Of a DNA stretch of 64,000 nt, positions 2,046 through 9,928 are shown piece after piece. The stretch covers positions 1,600,001 through 1,664,000 of the forward strand of contig OY970355.1 of assembly GCA_963718525.1 (NCBI GenBank). Reading direction: 5' to 3'. The notes under the pieces are model-generated. The model saw nothing but the letters and a program-made list of their open reading frames with translations. It was not told where the DNA came from and made no database searches. This stretch comes from Candidatus Dormiibacterota bacterium. Lineage in GTDB: Bacteria > Chloroflexota > Dormibacteria > Aeolococcales > Aeolococcaceae. The position numbers and the translations under genes are program-made. The stretch's first letter is position 1. Every line of letters begins with the position of its first letter.

Positions 2046-2155
2046 TCGGTTCAGTCTACCGATCGCACCCTTCGACACCCCCGTGCCCTGGCTGCACTTT
2101 GGGCTATGGTCACGCCGTGCCCCCGGGCAGGAGCGCCGCGACGATCCAGCCGAAG

Positions 2156-2911
2156 ATGACCCTCGGCGCTCTCTACCGTTGCCTGCTCGACCGCCTGGAC
2201 ATGCGGCTCGGCATGCGTGTGGGCATCCATTTCGAGGAGCGCACGTCGATCGTTGCGGAGCATGCCGTTGCCGGGTCCGAGCCGGCGCGCATCGAGCAGC
2301 GGACGTTCGACGCCGACCTCGCCGTCCGCGATGCGCAGGTGGTGGAGGCGACACTGAGCGCGGGCGCAACAGGAGCGGAAACGCTCGTCGTACGCGTCGC
2401 CGAGGTCGATGGCGGAAGCCGGTACTCGATCGCCGGCGAGGGTTTTGGAGTCCTGCTGGTACGCCCCGATCTCTTCCATCTCGCCGCGTTCGGCACCAAG
2501 CTCGAGAGCGTGCCCGTGAACGACGCGGTCATCGATCAGGAGACTCCGGACGGCTCCGGCCGGATCGTCGTCGACGCCGAGATCGACACCGATGCGTTCG
2601 CGCGGCTCCTCCATGTCTTCGACGGTGGTCAGTCGGAGAACCCGGAACTGCCGTTGCTCTCGCATTCGACCGTGCTGTCCGCCGCAGCAGACGTGACCCT
2701 CGACTACTGGTGGTCGCTCCTCGGCCTCGACGAGGTCGAGGGCCGGCCGGCACGCCACAATGTCGTCGTCGGCCACGTGCACGCGTCCTTTGCCCCGCTG
2801 ACGGATGCCGGCTCCGGCGCGACCCCGCTCGACCCGGACCCCGGGCTACCGACCCTCGAGGATCTCGATGCCGTATGGGAACGCGCCCGCCAGCACAGGG
2901 TCGGAAGCTGA
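2156..2911 (+). CDS. hypothetical acidic protein
   Basis: ORF with protein-like composition filling the gap between rhomboid and PBP; no motif recognised. Confidence 0.6.
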   Translation: MTLGALYRCLLDRLDMRLGMRVGIHFEERTSIVAEHAVAGSEPARIEQRTFDADLAVRDAQVVEATLSAGATGAETLVVRVAEVDGGSRYSIAGEGFGVLLVRPDLFHLAAFGTKLESVPVNDAVIDQETPDGSGRIVVDAEIDTDAFARLLHVFDGGQSENPELPLLSHSTVLSAAADVTLDYWWSLLGLDEVEGRPARHNVVVGHVHASFAPLTDAGSGATPLDPDPGLPTLEDLDAVWERARQHRVGS

Positions 2912-2915
2912 CGCG

Positions 2916-5438
2916 CTAATGCGGCGGTAACGTCGGGAGGGGCGTCGGGGTCGGGCTCGGTCCCGGTGACGGGTTGGGCGACGGATTGGGATTGGCCGGC
3001 GGAGGAGGCGGCGCCTGGGACGGCCCCGCGTAGGTGCAGGTCTGGGTGGGGAGCGGAGTCGGGCCGTAGTACGTGCAGTTCGTCGATGCGCCGGGCTGGG
3101 TGCCGGGCAGGTAGAAGTCGGAATTGTCGCCCTGGCCGCCGATCGAGATGACGTCGGCGGGCTGCTTGTACCAGGTGAGTGGAGCGCCCTTGGTCGCCGC
3201 CGTCATGTACGCGTGCCAGATCGGAGCGGCGCCGCTGTACCCGGAGACGATGCCGTCGAGGTGGCCGCAGTCGGGGTAGCCGGGATGCAGCGGCTTCAAA
3301 CCGTAGTGAGCCAGGTCGCGCGGGCTGAACGGATACGTGTAGTCGACCTCACCGGCCTCGATGACGTTCCCCCTTCGGATCTGCGATTCCATGTAGCCGT
3401 AATCCTTGGGCTGGAGACAGCTGCGCTGCGCGTTGCCGACCCAGACCGCGGTCAGCAGGTTCGGAGTCCAACCCACGGTGAGGTTGTCCATGAAGAAGTC
3501 CGCGGTGCCGGTCTTGGCGCTCACCCGGCGCGCACCCAGGGTCAGGTAGCCGTTGCGCCCGAACTCCCTGATCCGGTTGTTGTCGTTGCTGGTGATCTCA
3601 TCCATGATGTAGGCGACGTTCGCCGGGATCACCTGGTGGCCCGCCGCCGCGGCGTTGTACGTCCAGATCGTCTGGTTGGTGGCCTGCGCGGTGATGCTGG
3701 TGACCGGCATGGGGTTGTGCTGGACACCGAGATCGCCGAGGGTGGCGGCGCCGTCCGCGAGGTCCAGCAGGGTGATCCCGCAGGTGAGCGATCCGAGGGT
3801 CGCCGCCCACTGGGTGGGGGTCGGCCAGTTCACGTACTGCCCGTTGGGCCCGCAGTTCTGGTCGAGTGACTTCACGCCCATCGCCAGCTCGGTGTTCGCG
3901 ATGTACTGCGTGCCGGTTGCATATTCGGTTTTGACCGCCGGGATGTTGAACGAGTTTCCCAGGCACAGCTTGAGATCGCACGTGCCGTGGAGATGGCGGT
4001 CATCGTCATACGGCGAATACGGTGCAGCGCCGGGGATCGGGAACTTGTAATAGCTATCCAGGATTGGAGTGGTCATCGTGAACTTGGTCGACGCGATGGC
4101 GGCCGTATACGTGAACAGCTTCGTGGTCGAGCCCATGTTCAGCTGGACGGCCGCCGCCTCGTTGACCTGCCCGAAGTACGGGTCGGCGTAGTTCCACGTC
4201 CCGACCATCGCCAGCACCTCCCCGTTCTGCGGGTCGAGGCTCACCAGGGCGCCGTCGCCCATGTTCTCTTTGACGCGTTGCGCAGCGATGAGGTTGTGGA
4301 CGGTGCTGTACGCCAGGTTCTGCTTGGTCTGGTCGAGGGTGGTGTGGATCTCGTACCCACCGGGATTGGCGTACTGCGGAAAGTTTGCGTTCAGGTAGGT
4401 CTCGAGGTAATTGACGAAGTCGAGGTCGAGGTTGGGCTCCAACTCGGTCCACACGTGGAAGGTGAGCGGCTCGGCGAATGCGGCAACACCCTCTGCCTGG
4501 GTGATGTACCCGCTCGCCTGCATGGCCTGGAGCACCGCCTTCTGACGGGACTTCGCGAGTGGGTTGACTGTCTCACCGGGGTCACGAAGGAGCGGGTTGT
4601 ACGCCGAGGGGGACTGGGGCAGACCCGCGAGCATTGCTGCCTGGGCGAGATCCAGCTGGCTCGCGGGCTTGAGGAAATACAGCTCCGCCGCACTCCCGAT
4701 ACCGACCGAGTAGTTCCCGTAAAAGATCCGGTTGACATACATGTCGAGGATCTCGTTCTTCGTGAAGTTGAGCGCGAGCTCGTTGCCGAGCACGATCTCC
4801 TTGATCTTGTAATCGATGCTCTGGGGTGGATCGGCGCCGCCGTAGAGGCTGATCTTCGCGAGCTGCTCGGTGATCGTCGAGCCACCCTGGAGCGACGCGC
4901 CGTGGTGGGTGACGTCGGCGATGCCGGACTCGACCAGACGGGCGAGGTCCCACGAGCCTTCGTTGTAGAAGTTGTGGTCCTCGATGGCGACGATCGCCTC
5001 CTTGAAGTACGGCGAGATCTGCGTGAGGTCGGCGTGGATGTGTCGATAACCCTCGTTGTGGAAGACGTGGATGAGCCCGCCCTGTGCGTCGTAGACGCTG
5101 GTGTCGATCTGCGGCTCCATGTTGGCGACGGTCACCGCGTCCGGAAGCTGGCCCTTGTAGGCGTTGTAGCCCGCGAAGACGGCGCCGACAGTCCCGGCGC
5201 CGATCGCGGCGAACACAGTGATGGCAATCAGCACGACACGGAGCACGCGTCCGCGCTTGCGTGGCGTGCGCAGATGCCGGTACGCGCTGGCCCGACGGCG
5301 GCGCAGTTCCGCTCGCGCGGCGGCCTCGGCGGCCCCGATTCCCGGGTTGTTCGAGGCGGTGGCGCGAGCCGGTGTCGTCGAACCGTTCGGCAGGCCTGCC
5401 CGGCGGCGGCGGACCTCTGGGGTCTGGTCGAGGCTCAC
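2916..5438 (-). CDS. class A penicillin-binding protein (transglycosylase/transpeptidase)
   Basis: N-terminal TM; EDHNFY, GGSTITEQLAK and KIKE transglycosylase motifs; STTK, SFN, KTGT transpeptidase motifs; Pro-rich tail. Confidence 0.95.
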   Translation of the reverse strand: MSLDQTPEVRRRRAGLPNGSTTPARATASNNPGIGAAEAAARAELRRRRASAYRHLRTPRKRGRVLRVVLIAITVFAAIGAGTVGAVFAGYNAYKGQLPDAVTVANMEPQIDTSVYDAQGGLIHVFHNEGYRHIHADLTQISPYFKEAIVAIEDHNFYNEGSWDLARLVESGIADVTHHGASLQGGSTITEQLAKISLYGGADPPQSIDYKIKEIVLGNELALNFTKNEILDMYVNRIFYGNYSVGIGSAAELYFLKPASQLDLAQAAMLAGLPQSPSAYNPLLRDPGETVNPLAKSRQKAVLQAMQASGYITQAEGVAAFAEPLTFHVWTELEPNLDLDFVNYLETYLNANFPQYANPGGYEIHTTLDQTKQNLAYSTVHNLIAAQRVKENMGDGALVSLDPQNGEVLAMVGTWNYADPYFGQVNEAAAVQLNMGSTTKLFTYTAAIASTKFTMTTPILDSYYKFPIPGAAPYSPYDDDRHLHGTCDLKLCLGNSFNIPAVKTEYATGTQYIANTELAMGVKSLDQNCGPNGQYVNWPTPTQWAATLGSLTCGITLLDLADGAATLGDLGVQHNPMPVTSITAQATNQTIWTYNAAAAGHQVIPANVAYIMDEITSNDNNRIREFGRNGYLTLGARRVSAKTGTADFFMDNLTVGWTPNLLTAVWVGNAQRSCLQPKDYGYMESQIRRGNVIEAGEVDYTYPFSPRDLAHYGLKPLHPGYPDCGHLDGIVSGYSGAAPIWHAYMTAATKGAPLTWYKQPADVISIGGQGDNSDFYLPGTQPGASTNCTYYGPTPLPTQTCTYAGPSQAPPPPPANPNPSPNPSPGPSPTPTPLPTLPPH

Positions 5439-5796: not shown

Positions 5797-7113
5797 ATGG
5801 CAGTCACAGCGCCTGTTTCCGCGCCCGCCTCCAGTCCGATCGCGCTCCCTCCCGCCCCGAGGACCGCCGAGGAGACGGGGCTCCCCTTCAGCTTTGTGTG
5901 CGACCTCGTCCTCAAGGTCCTCTATTTCAACGGCAGCATGCTGGGTCGCGACATCGCCAACCACCTCTGCCTGCCGTTCTCATTTGTCGAGACCACGTCG
6001 CGGTTCCTCGCCGACGAAGGCTACTGCTCGTCGACCGGTGTGCACACCGCCACGCTGGACCCGGGCGAGCCGATCAACGCCGGCATGCAGCACATGATCT
6101 CGACCACGGGCAGGCAGCGTGCTCGCGAGCTGCTCGAGATCAACCAATACGCCGGCCCCGCCCCCGTGCCGATCGCCGACTACACCGCGATGGCGGAGCG
6201 CCAGTCGCACGTCGACGGACAGGTCAACCGCGCACGCCTCCACGATGCCTTCAGCCACCTGGTCCTTTCGGAGGTCGTGCTCGACCACCTCGGACCGGCC
6301 CTGAGCGCGCGCCAGGCCGTGTTCCTGTACGGGCCGCCGGGCAACGGCAAGACCACCATCGCCGAGGCCGCCGCGTCGCTGCTGGGCGCGCCGATGTTCA
6401 TCCCTCGGGCGCTCTACGTGCACGGCGAGGTGATCCGCTTCTACGACCCGATCCATCACGAGCCCATCGACCGCGAGCTGCCGCCCCACGACCGCCGCTG
6501 GCAGCTGGCCAAGCGTCCGGCCGTCAAGGTCGGTGGCGAGCTGACCCCGCGGATGCTCGAGCTCGGTTTCGACCACACGCTGGGGTTCTACGAGGCCTCG
6601 ATGCAGCTCAAGGCCAACGGTGGGCTGTTCCTCATCGACGACTTCGGCCGTCAGCAGAACATGTCTCCCCGCGACCTGCTCAACCGCTTGATCGTGCCGC
6701 TGGAGAAGAAGGTCGACTACCTCAACATCCCTCGCGCCGGGTCGAGCATCCCGGTGCCGTTCACCTGCCTGGTCATGCTCTCGACCAACCTGCGTCCGCA
6801 GAATCTCATGGACGAGGCATTCCTTCGCCGGGTGCGCTTCAAGGTGCATGTTCCCGACCCGACCGTCGACGAGTACAAGGAGATCTGGCGGCGCAACTGT
6901 GTCGACAACAACCTGCGCATGGACGAGGGACTGGTCGACCGGTTGCTCGAGAAGCACTACCACGCCAAGGGCCGTCCGCTGCACGGCACGCACCCGCGTG
7001 ACCTGCTCAACCACGTGATCCACGCCGCGCTGTACCTGGGCAAGCCCGTCGAGCTCAACAGCGAGCTGCTCGAACTCGCGTGCGAGACCTATTTCGTCGA
7101 CTTTGACGAGTAG
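5797..7113 (+). CDS. AAA+ ATPase with N-terminal winged-helix-like region
   Basis: Walker A YGPPGNGKTT, Walker B FLIDDFGRQ, sensor STN, DEAFLRR Arg finger. Confidence 0.85.
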   Translation: MAVTAPVSAPASSPIALPPAPRTAEETGLPFSFVCDLVLKVLYFNGSMLGRDIANHLCLPFSFVETTSRFLADEGYCSSTGVHTATLDPGEPINAGMQHMISTTGRQRARELLEINQYAGPAPVPIADYTAMAERQSHVDGQVNRARLHDAFSHLVLSEVVLDHLGPALSARQAVFLYGPPGNGKTTIAEAAASLLGAPMFIPRALYVHGEVIRFYDPIHHEPIDRELPPHDRRWQLAKRPAVKVGGELTPRMLELGFDHTLGFYEASMQLKANGGLFLIDDFGRQQNMSPRDLLNRLIVPLEKKVDYLNIPRAGSSIPVPFTCLVMLSTNLRPQNLMDEAFLRRVRFKVHVPDPTVDEYKEIWRRNCVDNNLRMDEGLVDRLLEKHYHAKGRPLHGTHPRDLLNHVIHAALYLGKPVELNSELLELACETYFVDFDE

Positions 7114-8753: not shown

Positions 8754-9410
8754 CTACTGGTTGTGACCGCTGCCGACCGCGACGGATTCGCGCTCCGAGG
8801 CTTCCTTCGCGACGACCGACCCCGCCGGACGCCGCTCGATGATCTGATCAATCATCCCGTACGCAAGCGCCTGCTCCGCCGTCATGTGGTAGTCGCGTTC
8901 GATGTCGCGGGCGATCTGCTCCGAGTCCCGTCCGGTGTGCCGGTGGTAGAGCTCGACGAGCAACGCTCGCTGGCGGAGGATCTCGCGCGCGTGCACGTCG
9001 AGGTCGGTCGCCTGACCCTGCATGCCCTGCGCCCATGGTTGGTGGATGACCACCAGTGAGTTGGGCAGTGCGAGCCTGCGCCCCGGTGCGCCTGCGGAAA
9101 GCAGCAACGACGCGCCGCTTGCGGCCATCCCGAGGCACGTCGTCTCCACCTGCGGGCGCACGTACTGCATCGCGTCGTACATCGCGAGCGCTGCTGTCAT
9201 GGAGCCGCCGGGGCTGTTGATGTACAGGTGCACGTCGCGCTCGGGGTCCTCGCCCTCGAGGAAGAGGAGCTGCGCGGTGACCAGGTTGGCCAGATCGTCG
9301 TCGATGACCCCGCCGACGAAGATGATCCGGTCGCGGAGCAGGCGCGAGTAGATGTCGTACGAGCGCTCACCGCGAGTTGTGCTCTCGACGACGGTGGGGA
9401 CCAGGGTCAT
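8754..9410 (-). CDS. clpP: ATP-dependent Clp protease proteolytic subunit (paralog)
   Basis: [25 protein letters not shown] (Ser), HQP (His), ERD (Asp): intact catalytic triad. Confidence 0.97.
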
Positions 9411-9844
9411 CGCGAGCCCTCCGCTGTTGGTGGAACGAAGCCGATGCGGCGGCGGGTTGGCTCCGCCTGGTTCATCGCGAGGAATGCGCCGAACTGCGCC
9501 ACGGTTCGGAGTGAGGCGGCGTCCAATCCCGACGCCACAACACGAAGCTGGCGCCGAGGGTCTGCCGGCCACGCGGGCTCCTCCTGAGGACCGCCTTCGA
9601 GGCGTCGCCCGAGGTCGGTGTAGAGCGCCGCGATCGGCACCGAGAGCGCATAGGTGATCGCGACCAGCAGATCGGCGGAGACATCCTTGAGCCCACGCTC
9701 GACCTCGGACAGGTACGCGGGCGAGCAGCCGGCCTCGCTCGCGAGCTCGCCGAGACGCCGTCCTTGAGCCTCGCGGTGCCCGCGAAGGATGCCGCCCAGC
9801 TCGCGGCGGATCTCGTCGGCGGTTACGCTCAGAGCAGAACTCAC
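9407..9844 (-). CDS. XRE-family HTH regulator, ClgR/PopR-like
   Basis: [43 protein letters not shown] resembles the ClgR HTH; 4-bp overlap with the clpP start. Confidence 0.85.
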
Positions 9845-9857
9845 AACGCTCAGAGCA
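9825..9857. promoter_or_regulatory. tandem ClgR-like operator boxes
   Basis: ACGCTCAGAGCA at 9825-9836 and 9846-9857 (21-bp period); fits CGC-N5-GC(G), core GCTC-A-GAGC is palindromic. Confidence 0.6.
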
Positions 9858-9928
9858 TATCACCGACGCAGAGGTCCGCCGCGACACCGGGGTGGCTCCA
9901 GCCGCTCGCGGCTATCCTTTGCCTCGTG

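Follow-up and report, generated by a model that had tools for sequence, protein, structure and literature searches.

A ClgR-like regulator overlapping a second clpP gene

The DNA analyzed here, hereafter called the window, is a 64,000-nucleotide stretch of contig OY970355.1 (positions 1,600,001 to 1,664,000; assembly GCA_963718525.1) from a metagenome-assembled genome (MAG) of the class Dormibacteria, phylum Chloroflexota. Its reverse strand carries a gene for a ClgR-like regulator with an XRE-type helix-turn-helix (HTH) domain, followed directly by a gene for a paralogue of the protease subunit ClpP (Table 1). The stop codon of the regulator gene (TGA, 9407-9409) and the start codon of clpP (ATG, 9408-9410) share the tetranucleotide ATGA, and the two genes overlap by 4 bp. 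An earlier examination of this DNA that used no database searches, termed here the sequence-only reading, had reported an XRE protein with an IGF tail overlapping an intact clpP by 4 bp, and the open reading frames (ORFs), their translations and Pfam matches all bear this out. Annotation of the neighboring genes likewise agrees with its statement that no clpX, clpC or second clpP adjoins the pair. The host is a Dormibacteria MAG and not an actinobacterium, the group for which that reading described ClgR and PopR.

Table 1. Features of the regulator-clpP pair, numbered from the first nucleotide of the window (aa, amino acids)
Feature	Position	Strand	Basis
Regulator gene, ClgR-like XRE protein, 145 aa, GTG start	9407..9844	(-)	ORF and translation; homologues of the same length found
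HTH DNA-binding domain, residues 15-70, ClgR-type signature	9635..9802	(-)	Pfam range, alignment
Conserved amphipathic segment, residues ~106-124, probably a helix judging from sequence	9473..9529	(-)	Alignment
RRRIGF, ClpX-loop-like, putative ClpP-pocket docking site	9437..9454	(-)	I134, G135 and F136 invariant; clpP association
Operator-like box 1, TGCTCTGAGCG, overlapping the -10-like TGnTATGCT	9847..9857	(-)	Conserved in Dormibacteria loci and metagenome group A
Operator-like box 2, TGCTCTGAGCG, 21 nt downstream of box 1, in codons 3-7	9826..9836	(-)	Conservation
Second ClpP paralogue, 218 aa, Ser98/His123/Asp173 intact	8754..9410	(-)	Pfam, NCBIfam, alignment

The HTH domain of the regulator matches Pfam HTH_31 (residues 15-70, E 2.5e-9) as well as HTH_3. 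Its best NCBIfam match is ClgR (NF041677), at 63.4 bits over residues 12-89 only, which lies below the 170-bit equivalog cut-off. Together with the ClgR-type CGC/TGC-N5-GCG boxes at its own promoter, this match substantiates the designation 'ClgR-like' made by the sequence-only reading. As in ClgR, the XRE HTH signature reads ...YLSE(V/I)ERG(R/L)K..., palindromic boxes are present, and there is a link to Clp protease control. ClgR, however, is actinobacterial and carries a C-terminal Ala-Ala degron, whereas the regulator from this Chloroflexota host has no Ala-Ala but instead the amphipathic segment and the RRRIGF tail. The RRRIGF sequence stands 9 residues before the end of the protein, which closes with ...AEGSR. 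The nearest ESM Atlas clusters to the regulator are HTH proteins of Dormibacterota/Chloroflexota, and its relatives in public genomes are labelled Dormibacteria or Dormibacterota, with two labelled Saccharimonadales.

The second gene matches the Pfam family CLP_protease (E 7.5e-73, 244.7 bits) and exceeds the 249-bit cut-off of NCBIfam NF001368 with 292.9 bits; many relatives of its product have solved structures. Ser98, His123 and Asp173 are invariant among 28 aligned ClpPs. In the same alignment, the linked ClpPs (those encoded beside a ClgR-like regulator) are invariant at L24, L25, L48, L49, F50, Y63, Y83 and L115, positions that may correspond to the pocket residues of E. coli ClpP.

The 3.34-Mb genome encodes two full ClpPs, namely the linked copy and a higher-scoring canonical copy (C1:1585614-1586150), which is followed by clpX and lies beyond the window, at a distance of 23 kb upstream of the pair. 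The sole clpC gene is found about 156 kb from the pair, and the genome also holds two Lon genes and one ClpB, which has no loop of the kind described below. At least two ClpPs are present in all five checked genomes with a linked pair, and the linked ClpP is never the top-scoring one; in three of these five, the top-scoring ClpP is followed by clpX. All 20 published Dormibacteria genomes with a regulator of subfamily S1 (defined below) hold two or three ClpPs, and genomes devoid of the regulator hold one or two. The linked ClpP is thus always an extra copy, both in the five checked genomes and in the 20 published ones.

A tree of 22 ClpP sequences unites the linked ClpPs from co-directional pairs, including that of the window, in one clade (support 96/98). 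Four linked ClpPs from divergent pairs form a second clade (100/99), and two further linked ClpPs group with a clpX-linked ClpP (100/99). By this tree, linked ClpPs fall into at least three well-supported clades. A third type of ClpP, with neither the regulator nor clpX beside it, occurs in Dormibacteria of family f3 of the Genome Taxonomy Database (GTDB), for example at loci L149, L248 and L249, and appears in the tree as the sister of the clade of ClpPs linked to regulators of subfamily S2 (also defined below). At another locus (L246, G333:C29), a second clpP (2429-3106, plus strand) lies beside a divergent gene for a small XRE protein without IGF (2050-2364, minus strand). This protein is not ClgR-like and stands outside the counted set.

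An IGF motif resembling unfoldase docking loops

The hydrophobic pockets of ClpP serve as docking sites for AAA+ unfoldases and are the target of ADEP-type antibiotics. According to one report, the I/LGF loops of the unfoldases dock in pockets located where ClpP subunits meet, six of the seven being filled by ClpX (PMC7112952). In the genome of the window these loops read LGKRVIGFNSKP in ClpX and NMSLGFQPAVPDE in ClpC, the core of the former being GKRVIGF; ClpX loops from other genomes read IGHKQIGFGSE, VGRRAIGFGAP and GGRRTMGFKAE. Tails of S1 regulators read TRRRIGF, PKRRIGF, RRRPIGF and KPKDRIGF, and by this comparison they have the same [KR][KR]x flank as the ClpX loops of the four genomes checked. 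Like the I/LGF loops of ClpX, ClpA and ClpC and the ADEP compounds that mimic them, the regulator appears to present a hydrophobic-Gly-Phe element in a flexible stretch, here one rich in proline, glycine and charged residues. Unlike the loops, of which there are six per ATPase ring, the element belongs to a 145-aa DNA-binding protein that has no ATPase domain and would offer two copies per presumed dimer.

We know of no natural non-ATPase protein ligand for the ClpP pockets and of no transcription factor that uses them, and full-text literature searches returned neither. A short terminal peptide likewise docks a non-ATPase protein on a protease machine in SspB-type tethering and in the proteasome activators with HbYX or GQYL tails. 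In these systems, however, the peptides bind the ClpX N-domain or the pockets of the 20S alpha-ring; none of the proteins is known to be a transcription factor or to act at ClpP pockets.

The motif is strongly conserved, both in close and in distant relatives of the regulator. Among 34 loci from Dormibacteria genomes, 31 encode the tail RR(R/P)IGF, and the remaining three either have a disrupted frame (L033, L034) or are truncated where the contig ends (L036). The two frame disruptions, which produce a 485-aa read-through and an altered tail, come from two MAG assemblies and are probably assembly frameshifts. A clpP gene lies downstream of the regulator at 32 of the 34 loci, and in the lineage of the window the two genes form one tightly coupled unit. 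A more distant set of 80 metagenome loci (group A), whose regulators are about 48% identical to that of the window, has clpP 7-20 nt downstream in 78 cases, while the other two run into a contig end; all but one of the 80 visibly encode IGF, within the tail (K/R)RRIGF(T/N/M/I)(V/L/F)(D/E)(R/G).

Among 20 representatives of clusters formed at 50% (39-63% identity), invariance is confined to the columns L107, A116, F118, I134, G135 and F136. All six lie outside the HTH domain and three of them constitute the motif, which means that IGF is better conserved than the HTH domain. All 76 distinct DNA versions preserve I, G and F, although they do so with different codons (Ile as ATC in 72 and ATT in 4; Gly as GGA in 51, GGC in 23 and GGT in 2; Phe as TTC in 68 and TTT in 8), and five different Arg codons are used at position -2. 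Because the codons vary while the residues are fixed, selection acts on the protein rather than on an RNA element or a ribosome-binding element for clpP. Judged from these alignments, the IGF motif is not a product of chance.

The neighboring amphipathic segment is a separate module, because its pattern (L-R-x-V-x-x-F-x-x-F-L) is also present in XRE proteins without IGF, where it closes the protein (P0177, P0210, P0212 and P0246). The same segment occurs in multi-HTH proteins, among them P0158, P0165 and P0170.

To define how far the motif follows clpP, we surveyed 401 genomes of the phylum with a regulator profile (E<=1e-10), and 103 of them proved to contain a total of 111 matching places. 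We excluded the window as well as two unpublished genomes (G173 and G136). The other 108 loci, taken with 3-kb flanks, were scored for the presence of [ILVMF]GF at a distance of over 22 residues downstream of the ERG signature, and for ClpP by tblastn (E<=1e-20) within the locus. Three unpublished genomes (G173, G136 and G269) entered search tallies, and no conclusion rests on them. One locus from an earlier, smaller sample (L142; genome 66% complete) has neither motif nor clpP and was kept out of the table of counts.

Both motif and clpP are found at 58 loci, the motif only at 3, clpP only at 1, and neither at 46. Stated differently, clpP lies within 3 kb at 58 of 61 motif-bearing ClgR-like loci and at 1 of 47 motif-less ones (Fisher's test, 1e-25, with related genomes treated as independent). 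Among the motif-only loci, L185 offers just 382 nt on the relevant side, and L222 encodes a 223-aa cupin-type XRE protein that contains IGF by chance. Of the 46 loci that lack both features, five offer less than 1.5 kb of room. The regulator-clpP pair is present in seven GTDB families (f1, f2, f3, f5, f22, f25 and f45). Across Chloroflexota, therefore, the motif of ClgR-like regulators is almost confined to loci with a neighboring clpP, which answers affirmatively the question, posed by the sequence-only reading, of whether IGF is conserved specifically in clpP-adjacent homologues.

All motif-bearing loci belong to two related subfamilies of one phylum, and as a result the two-by-two table is not phylogenetically independent. 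This dependence fits an explanation in which the motif serves another partner or function, such as dimer or tetramer packing, contact with RNA polymerase or an arm that touches DNA, and tracks clpP by inheritance within a single clpP-regulating family. The presence of the adjacent amphipathic helix in XRE proteins without IGF (P0177, P0210 and P0212, noted above) fits it as well. Against this, a linear motif would rarely equal the ClpP-docking tripeptide by coincidence, and the basic residues that a DNA arm would need are less conserved than IGF. Moreover, the architectures of the two subfamilies argue that more than shared ancestry is at work. In S1, which comprises 21 of the 108 loci and the window, the HTH domain is followed by the helix, then by [KR][KR]x-IGF and then by the end of the protein, with clpP downstream and co-directional. 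In S2 (37 loci), the motif stands between the HTH domain and the same helix, and clpP is divergent. S2 motifs take forms such as TSAIGFTLP, TRAIGFTVPDR and GLGFGFG (with the variants AGFGFG and AFGFG), and the S2 branch in family f25 is devoid of the helix, its members closing with ...LVA or ...AVA. The tripeptide thus survives changes of its position in the protein and relative to the helix, of gene order (downstream versus divergent), of the C-terminus and of the ClpP clade. We consider such a different partner or function distinctly unlikely.

Two of the attributes ascribed to the pair by the sequence-only reading apply to S1 and fail in S2. These are the basic R/K flank, which is absent from S2 motifs such as TSAIGFTLP, and the tight translational coupling, which in S1 takes the form of ATGA or gaps of 5-22 nt and is precluded in S2 by the divergent clpP. 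Coupling of this kind would be expected of partners made in a fixed ratio, and it raises the prospect that the tail activates or inhibits the co-encoded ClpP independently of ATP, opening the gate in the manner of ADEP or blocking the ATPases, with transcription control being secondary. All of the evidence for docking would apply equally to such a role. Nevertheless, the divergent genes of S2 do not enforce a fixed ratio, a gate that stays open constitutively is reported to be toxic in known systems (PMC8182300), and the conserved HTH domain and operators show DNA binding to be a core function. Our assessment is that this role is very unlikely.

At S2 loci we also observed a conserved ORF that separates the regulator from clpP and lies on the clpP strand; its called length is 76-175 aa, with a core of about 60 residues (L132:3675-3953, L171:2526-2753, L212:3475-3732, L136:2249-2512, L190:2588-2863 and 18 more loci). 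Its products gave weak DUF4177 matches in five of five cases tested, one of them above the cut-off, and their N-terminal xPxV(Y/F)E resembles the N-terminal VPxVxE of ClpP. No ORF of this type was found in the genome of the window.

A search of 1.84 billion representatives with a profile of the regulator returned 7339 matches at E<=1e-3 and 16 at E<=1e-30, and IGF occurs within the last 40 residues in 23 of the best 150 matches. Among 129 single-domain ClgR-like representatives whose tail is 12 residues or longer, 24 have [ILVMF]GF after the HTH domain and 49 have the C-terminal [AV]A that is the classical ClgR/PopR-type end. The frequency of this end supports a further explanation, in which ClpX, ClpC or an adaptor, rather than ClpP, would recognize the motif as a degron or tether, so that the regulator would be a substrate of the PopR/ClgR type with its Ala-Ala replaced and with ATPase-dependent feedback. 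One study describes both ClgR and PopR as Clp substrates, degraded by ClpXP1P2/ClpCP with a requirement for the ATPase (PMC9765437). The f25 branch, moreover, combines IGF with its ...LVA/AVA end, and the RRR flank of S1 recalls basic C-terminal signals for ClpX. What is invariant, however, is I-G-F rather than the basic residues or the C-terminus. The distance from motif to C-terminus ranges from 2 to about 45 residues, the motif being internal in S2, and the motif matches the loops by which the ATPases themselves dock on ClpP. To our knowledge, no unfoldase degron has the IGF form. On balance, a degron read by the unfoldases is unlikely. Members of f25 with an internal AIGF and an end like those of ssrA or ClgR are found at L137, L197, L199, L204, L205, L209, L212, L214, L219 and L221.

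Operator-like boxes at the regulator's own promoter

The -10-like element TGnTATGCT (9854-9862) ends 9 nt before the GTG start codon and overlaps box 1. A strict sigma-70 scan for two hexamers gave neither a promoter nor a terminator at the locus, and the -10 assignment therefore rests on conservation only. The core motif reported for ClgR is CGC-N5-GCG (PMC3613350). The window contains TGC-N5-GCG twice, 21 nt apart, and CGC-N5-GCG occupies the same place in L035 and in group A. The boxes of L035 are CGCTCTCAGCG and CGCTGACAGCG, and those of group A, which share the layout, are (A/G)CGCTCA(C/A)(A/G)GC and ACGCTCACAGCGAA. At S2 loci there are two or three TATGCT-N3-AGCATA palindromes, spaced 29-30 nt apart and located 30-134 nt upstream of the regulator ATG; none is present at L135, a locus with neither motif nor clpP.

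Autoregulation is likely, judging by the position and conservation of the tandem ClgR-type boxes, which overlap the promoter of the regulator gene itself. Furthermore, the placement of the operator over the -10 element and the first codons indicates that the effect is probably repression. This arrangement departs from that of ClgR, whose boxes lie upstream of housekeeping clp genes. In the window's own genome, the scanned regions upstream of the canonical clpP, clpX, clpC, clpB and the two lon genes contain no [CT]GCT-N3-AGCG box.

Across this genome, the 10-mer core was seen 15 times against about 15 expected, and the 11-mer pattern 498 times against about 379, with looser single boxes being indistinguishable from chance; tandem pairs alone are informative. 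Exact 21-nt tandem pairs occur at the regulator promoter and at one other site, a CGCT-N3-AGCG pair (C1:2074712-2074743) that we judged to be chance, residing as it does inside an ORF resembling a transposase or integrase. A tandem pair with 27-nt spacing, inside a coding region, was also judged to be chance.

In the window and at loci L004-L117, the start codon follows the -10-like hexamer by 9-13 nt. This short distance suggests a leaderless or near-leaderless transcript, and, by position and conservation, the mRNA is probably leaderless. The N-terminal peptide encoded over box 2 is SALSV in the window and YAHSE in group A, and since box 2 lies inside codons 3-7, this peptide may be constrained by the DNA rather than by the protein.

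One of the nearest functional parallels is PopR, which controls the back-up clpP3clpP4 operon of Streptomyces. In the study cited above, PopR is likewise ClgR-like, is dedicated to and located beside an extra clpP locus, and is subject to feedback through Clp (PMC9765437). The window's regulator resembles it in that the clpP beside it is not the housekeeping one, a canonical copy being present elsewhere in the genome. By description, PopR is an activator that is degraded via ClpX/ClpC and needs its C-terminal alanines, whereas the window's regulator has the IGF motif, an operator position of probable repressor type and a single clpP. A 2.8-Mb Streptomyces record contains a classical ClgR ending in VVAA, with neither the motif nor an adjoining clpP, as well as a lone clpP without an XRE gene.

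A possible link between ClpP occupancy and clpP transcription

Taken together, these observations are best explained by a self-contained, probably autoregulated two-gene module composed of a ClgR-family HTH regulator and an extra ClpP that is predicted to be catalytically intact. We regard direct docking of the regulator's IGF motif on ClpP as the best reading, at about even odds. If so, IGF would insert into the apical hydrophobic pockets normally taken by the I/LGF loops of ClpX and ClpC, and the activity or stability of the regulator would depend on the number of free pockets.

Two circuits could arise from docking of this kind. In one, which amounts to negative feedback by occupancy sensing, ClpP rings with empty pockets would hold the tails of box-bound dimers and thereby stabilize repression, while the loading of ATPases on ClpP would dislodge the tails and increase expression of clpP. 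In the other, the motif would tether the regulator to the one pocket left empty by the ClpX hexamer and speed its degradation, replacing the C-terminal Ala-Ala degron of classical ClgR and PopR. Negative feedback is the most likely and most economical circuit, and tethering of the regulator in its own degradation is nearly as plausible; the tethering role would fit the f25 branch, where IGF and an ssrA-like end are combined. We give slightly less than even odds to the view that a transcription factor occupies the ATPase pockets of ClpP, such that occupancy sets clpP transcription or an empty pocket acts as the tether, and that these regulators form a widespread, unrecognized ClgR-like class in Chloroflexota. 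Relatives of this class that combine a PVGF motif with an Ala-Ala end may possibly exist in Actinobacteria. Four classical-looking ClgR proteins (P0180, P0181, P0201 and P0225), which begin with MVLLRRLLG... and end in -AA, have (A/R)PVGF(A/V) about 10 residues after the HTH domain, at the position of the S2 motif, and offer a lead toward PopR-like proteins of Actinobacteria.

Several points weigh against docking of the regulator on ClpP and against the feedback proposed. No precedent is known to us for a transcription factor that docks on ClpP, single IGF peptides bind weakly, and a dimer offers two tails for seven pockets. Actinobacterial ClgR is an activator, and it is the position of the operator only that suggests a repressor role here. 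The motif of S2 has no basic flank, and the association with clpP could have been inherited with one regulator family, for which contact would not be required. Among the loci, L188 (G390:C14:313442-319828) is a true exception, with the motif but without clpP within 3 kb, and the clpP-only locus L202 reads AIGI in place of IGF in an ORF cut by the contig end. Extra ClpPs without the regulator also occur (G164 and G221). Finally, classical degradation of ClgR and PopR needs an ATPase, as stated in the study noted above (PMC9765437). The regulator at L188 belongs to S2, reads VIGFTQP and is preceded by one upstream box.

Full-text literature searches, judged from listings and abstracts, turned up no account of a transcription factor, ClgR-like or otherwise, that has a motif for docking on ClpP. 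The module belongs with the ClgR/PopR kind, and the mechanism itself would be new if docking were confirmed. Should the motif dock, it would represent a new way of measuring free protease capacity, one that matches the supply of ClpP to the demand of the unfoldases. It would also be a natural peptide ligand for the ClpP pocket and would explain how a ClgR-type circuit can dispense with the Ala-Ala degron. The whole module comprises just two genes, a 6-residue motif and an 11-bp box.

Evidence from RNA data is sparse. A metatranscriptome contig of 151 nt with depth 2 is identical to 9603-9753, a match that by itself demonstrates neither transcription nor its start or strand. In two RNA runs, represented by contigs only, small fractions (0.11 and 0.09) of the sampled words were present.

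According to Pfam, the genes around the pair encode a methyltransferase, an OsmC-like protein, a divergent P-loop ATPase, a MOSC protein and a D-Ala-D-Ala carboxypeptidase. These neighbors are not biosynthetic, and we therefore rejected the idea, prompted by PMC13243586, that clpP is the self-resistance gene of a biosynthetic cluster. The P-loop ATPase (5797-7113) was likewise rejected as a possible unfoldase partner in the module; it is syntenic at 26 of the 34 close loci, at none of the 80 group A loci and at 3 of 21 other S1 loci. This 438-aa protein, encoded on the plus strand, matches AAA families at the level of the Walker A motif only, and within NCBIfam it comes closest to the anti-phage ATPase IteA, scoring 33 bits where the cut-off is 510 bits.

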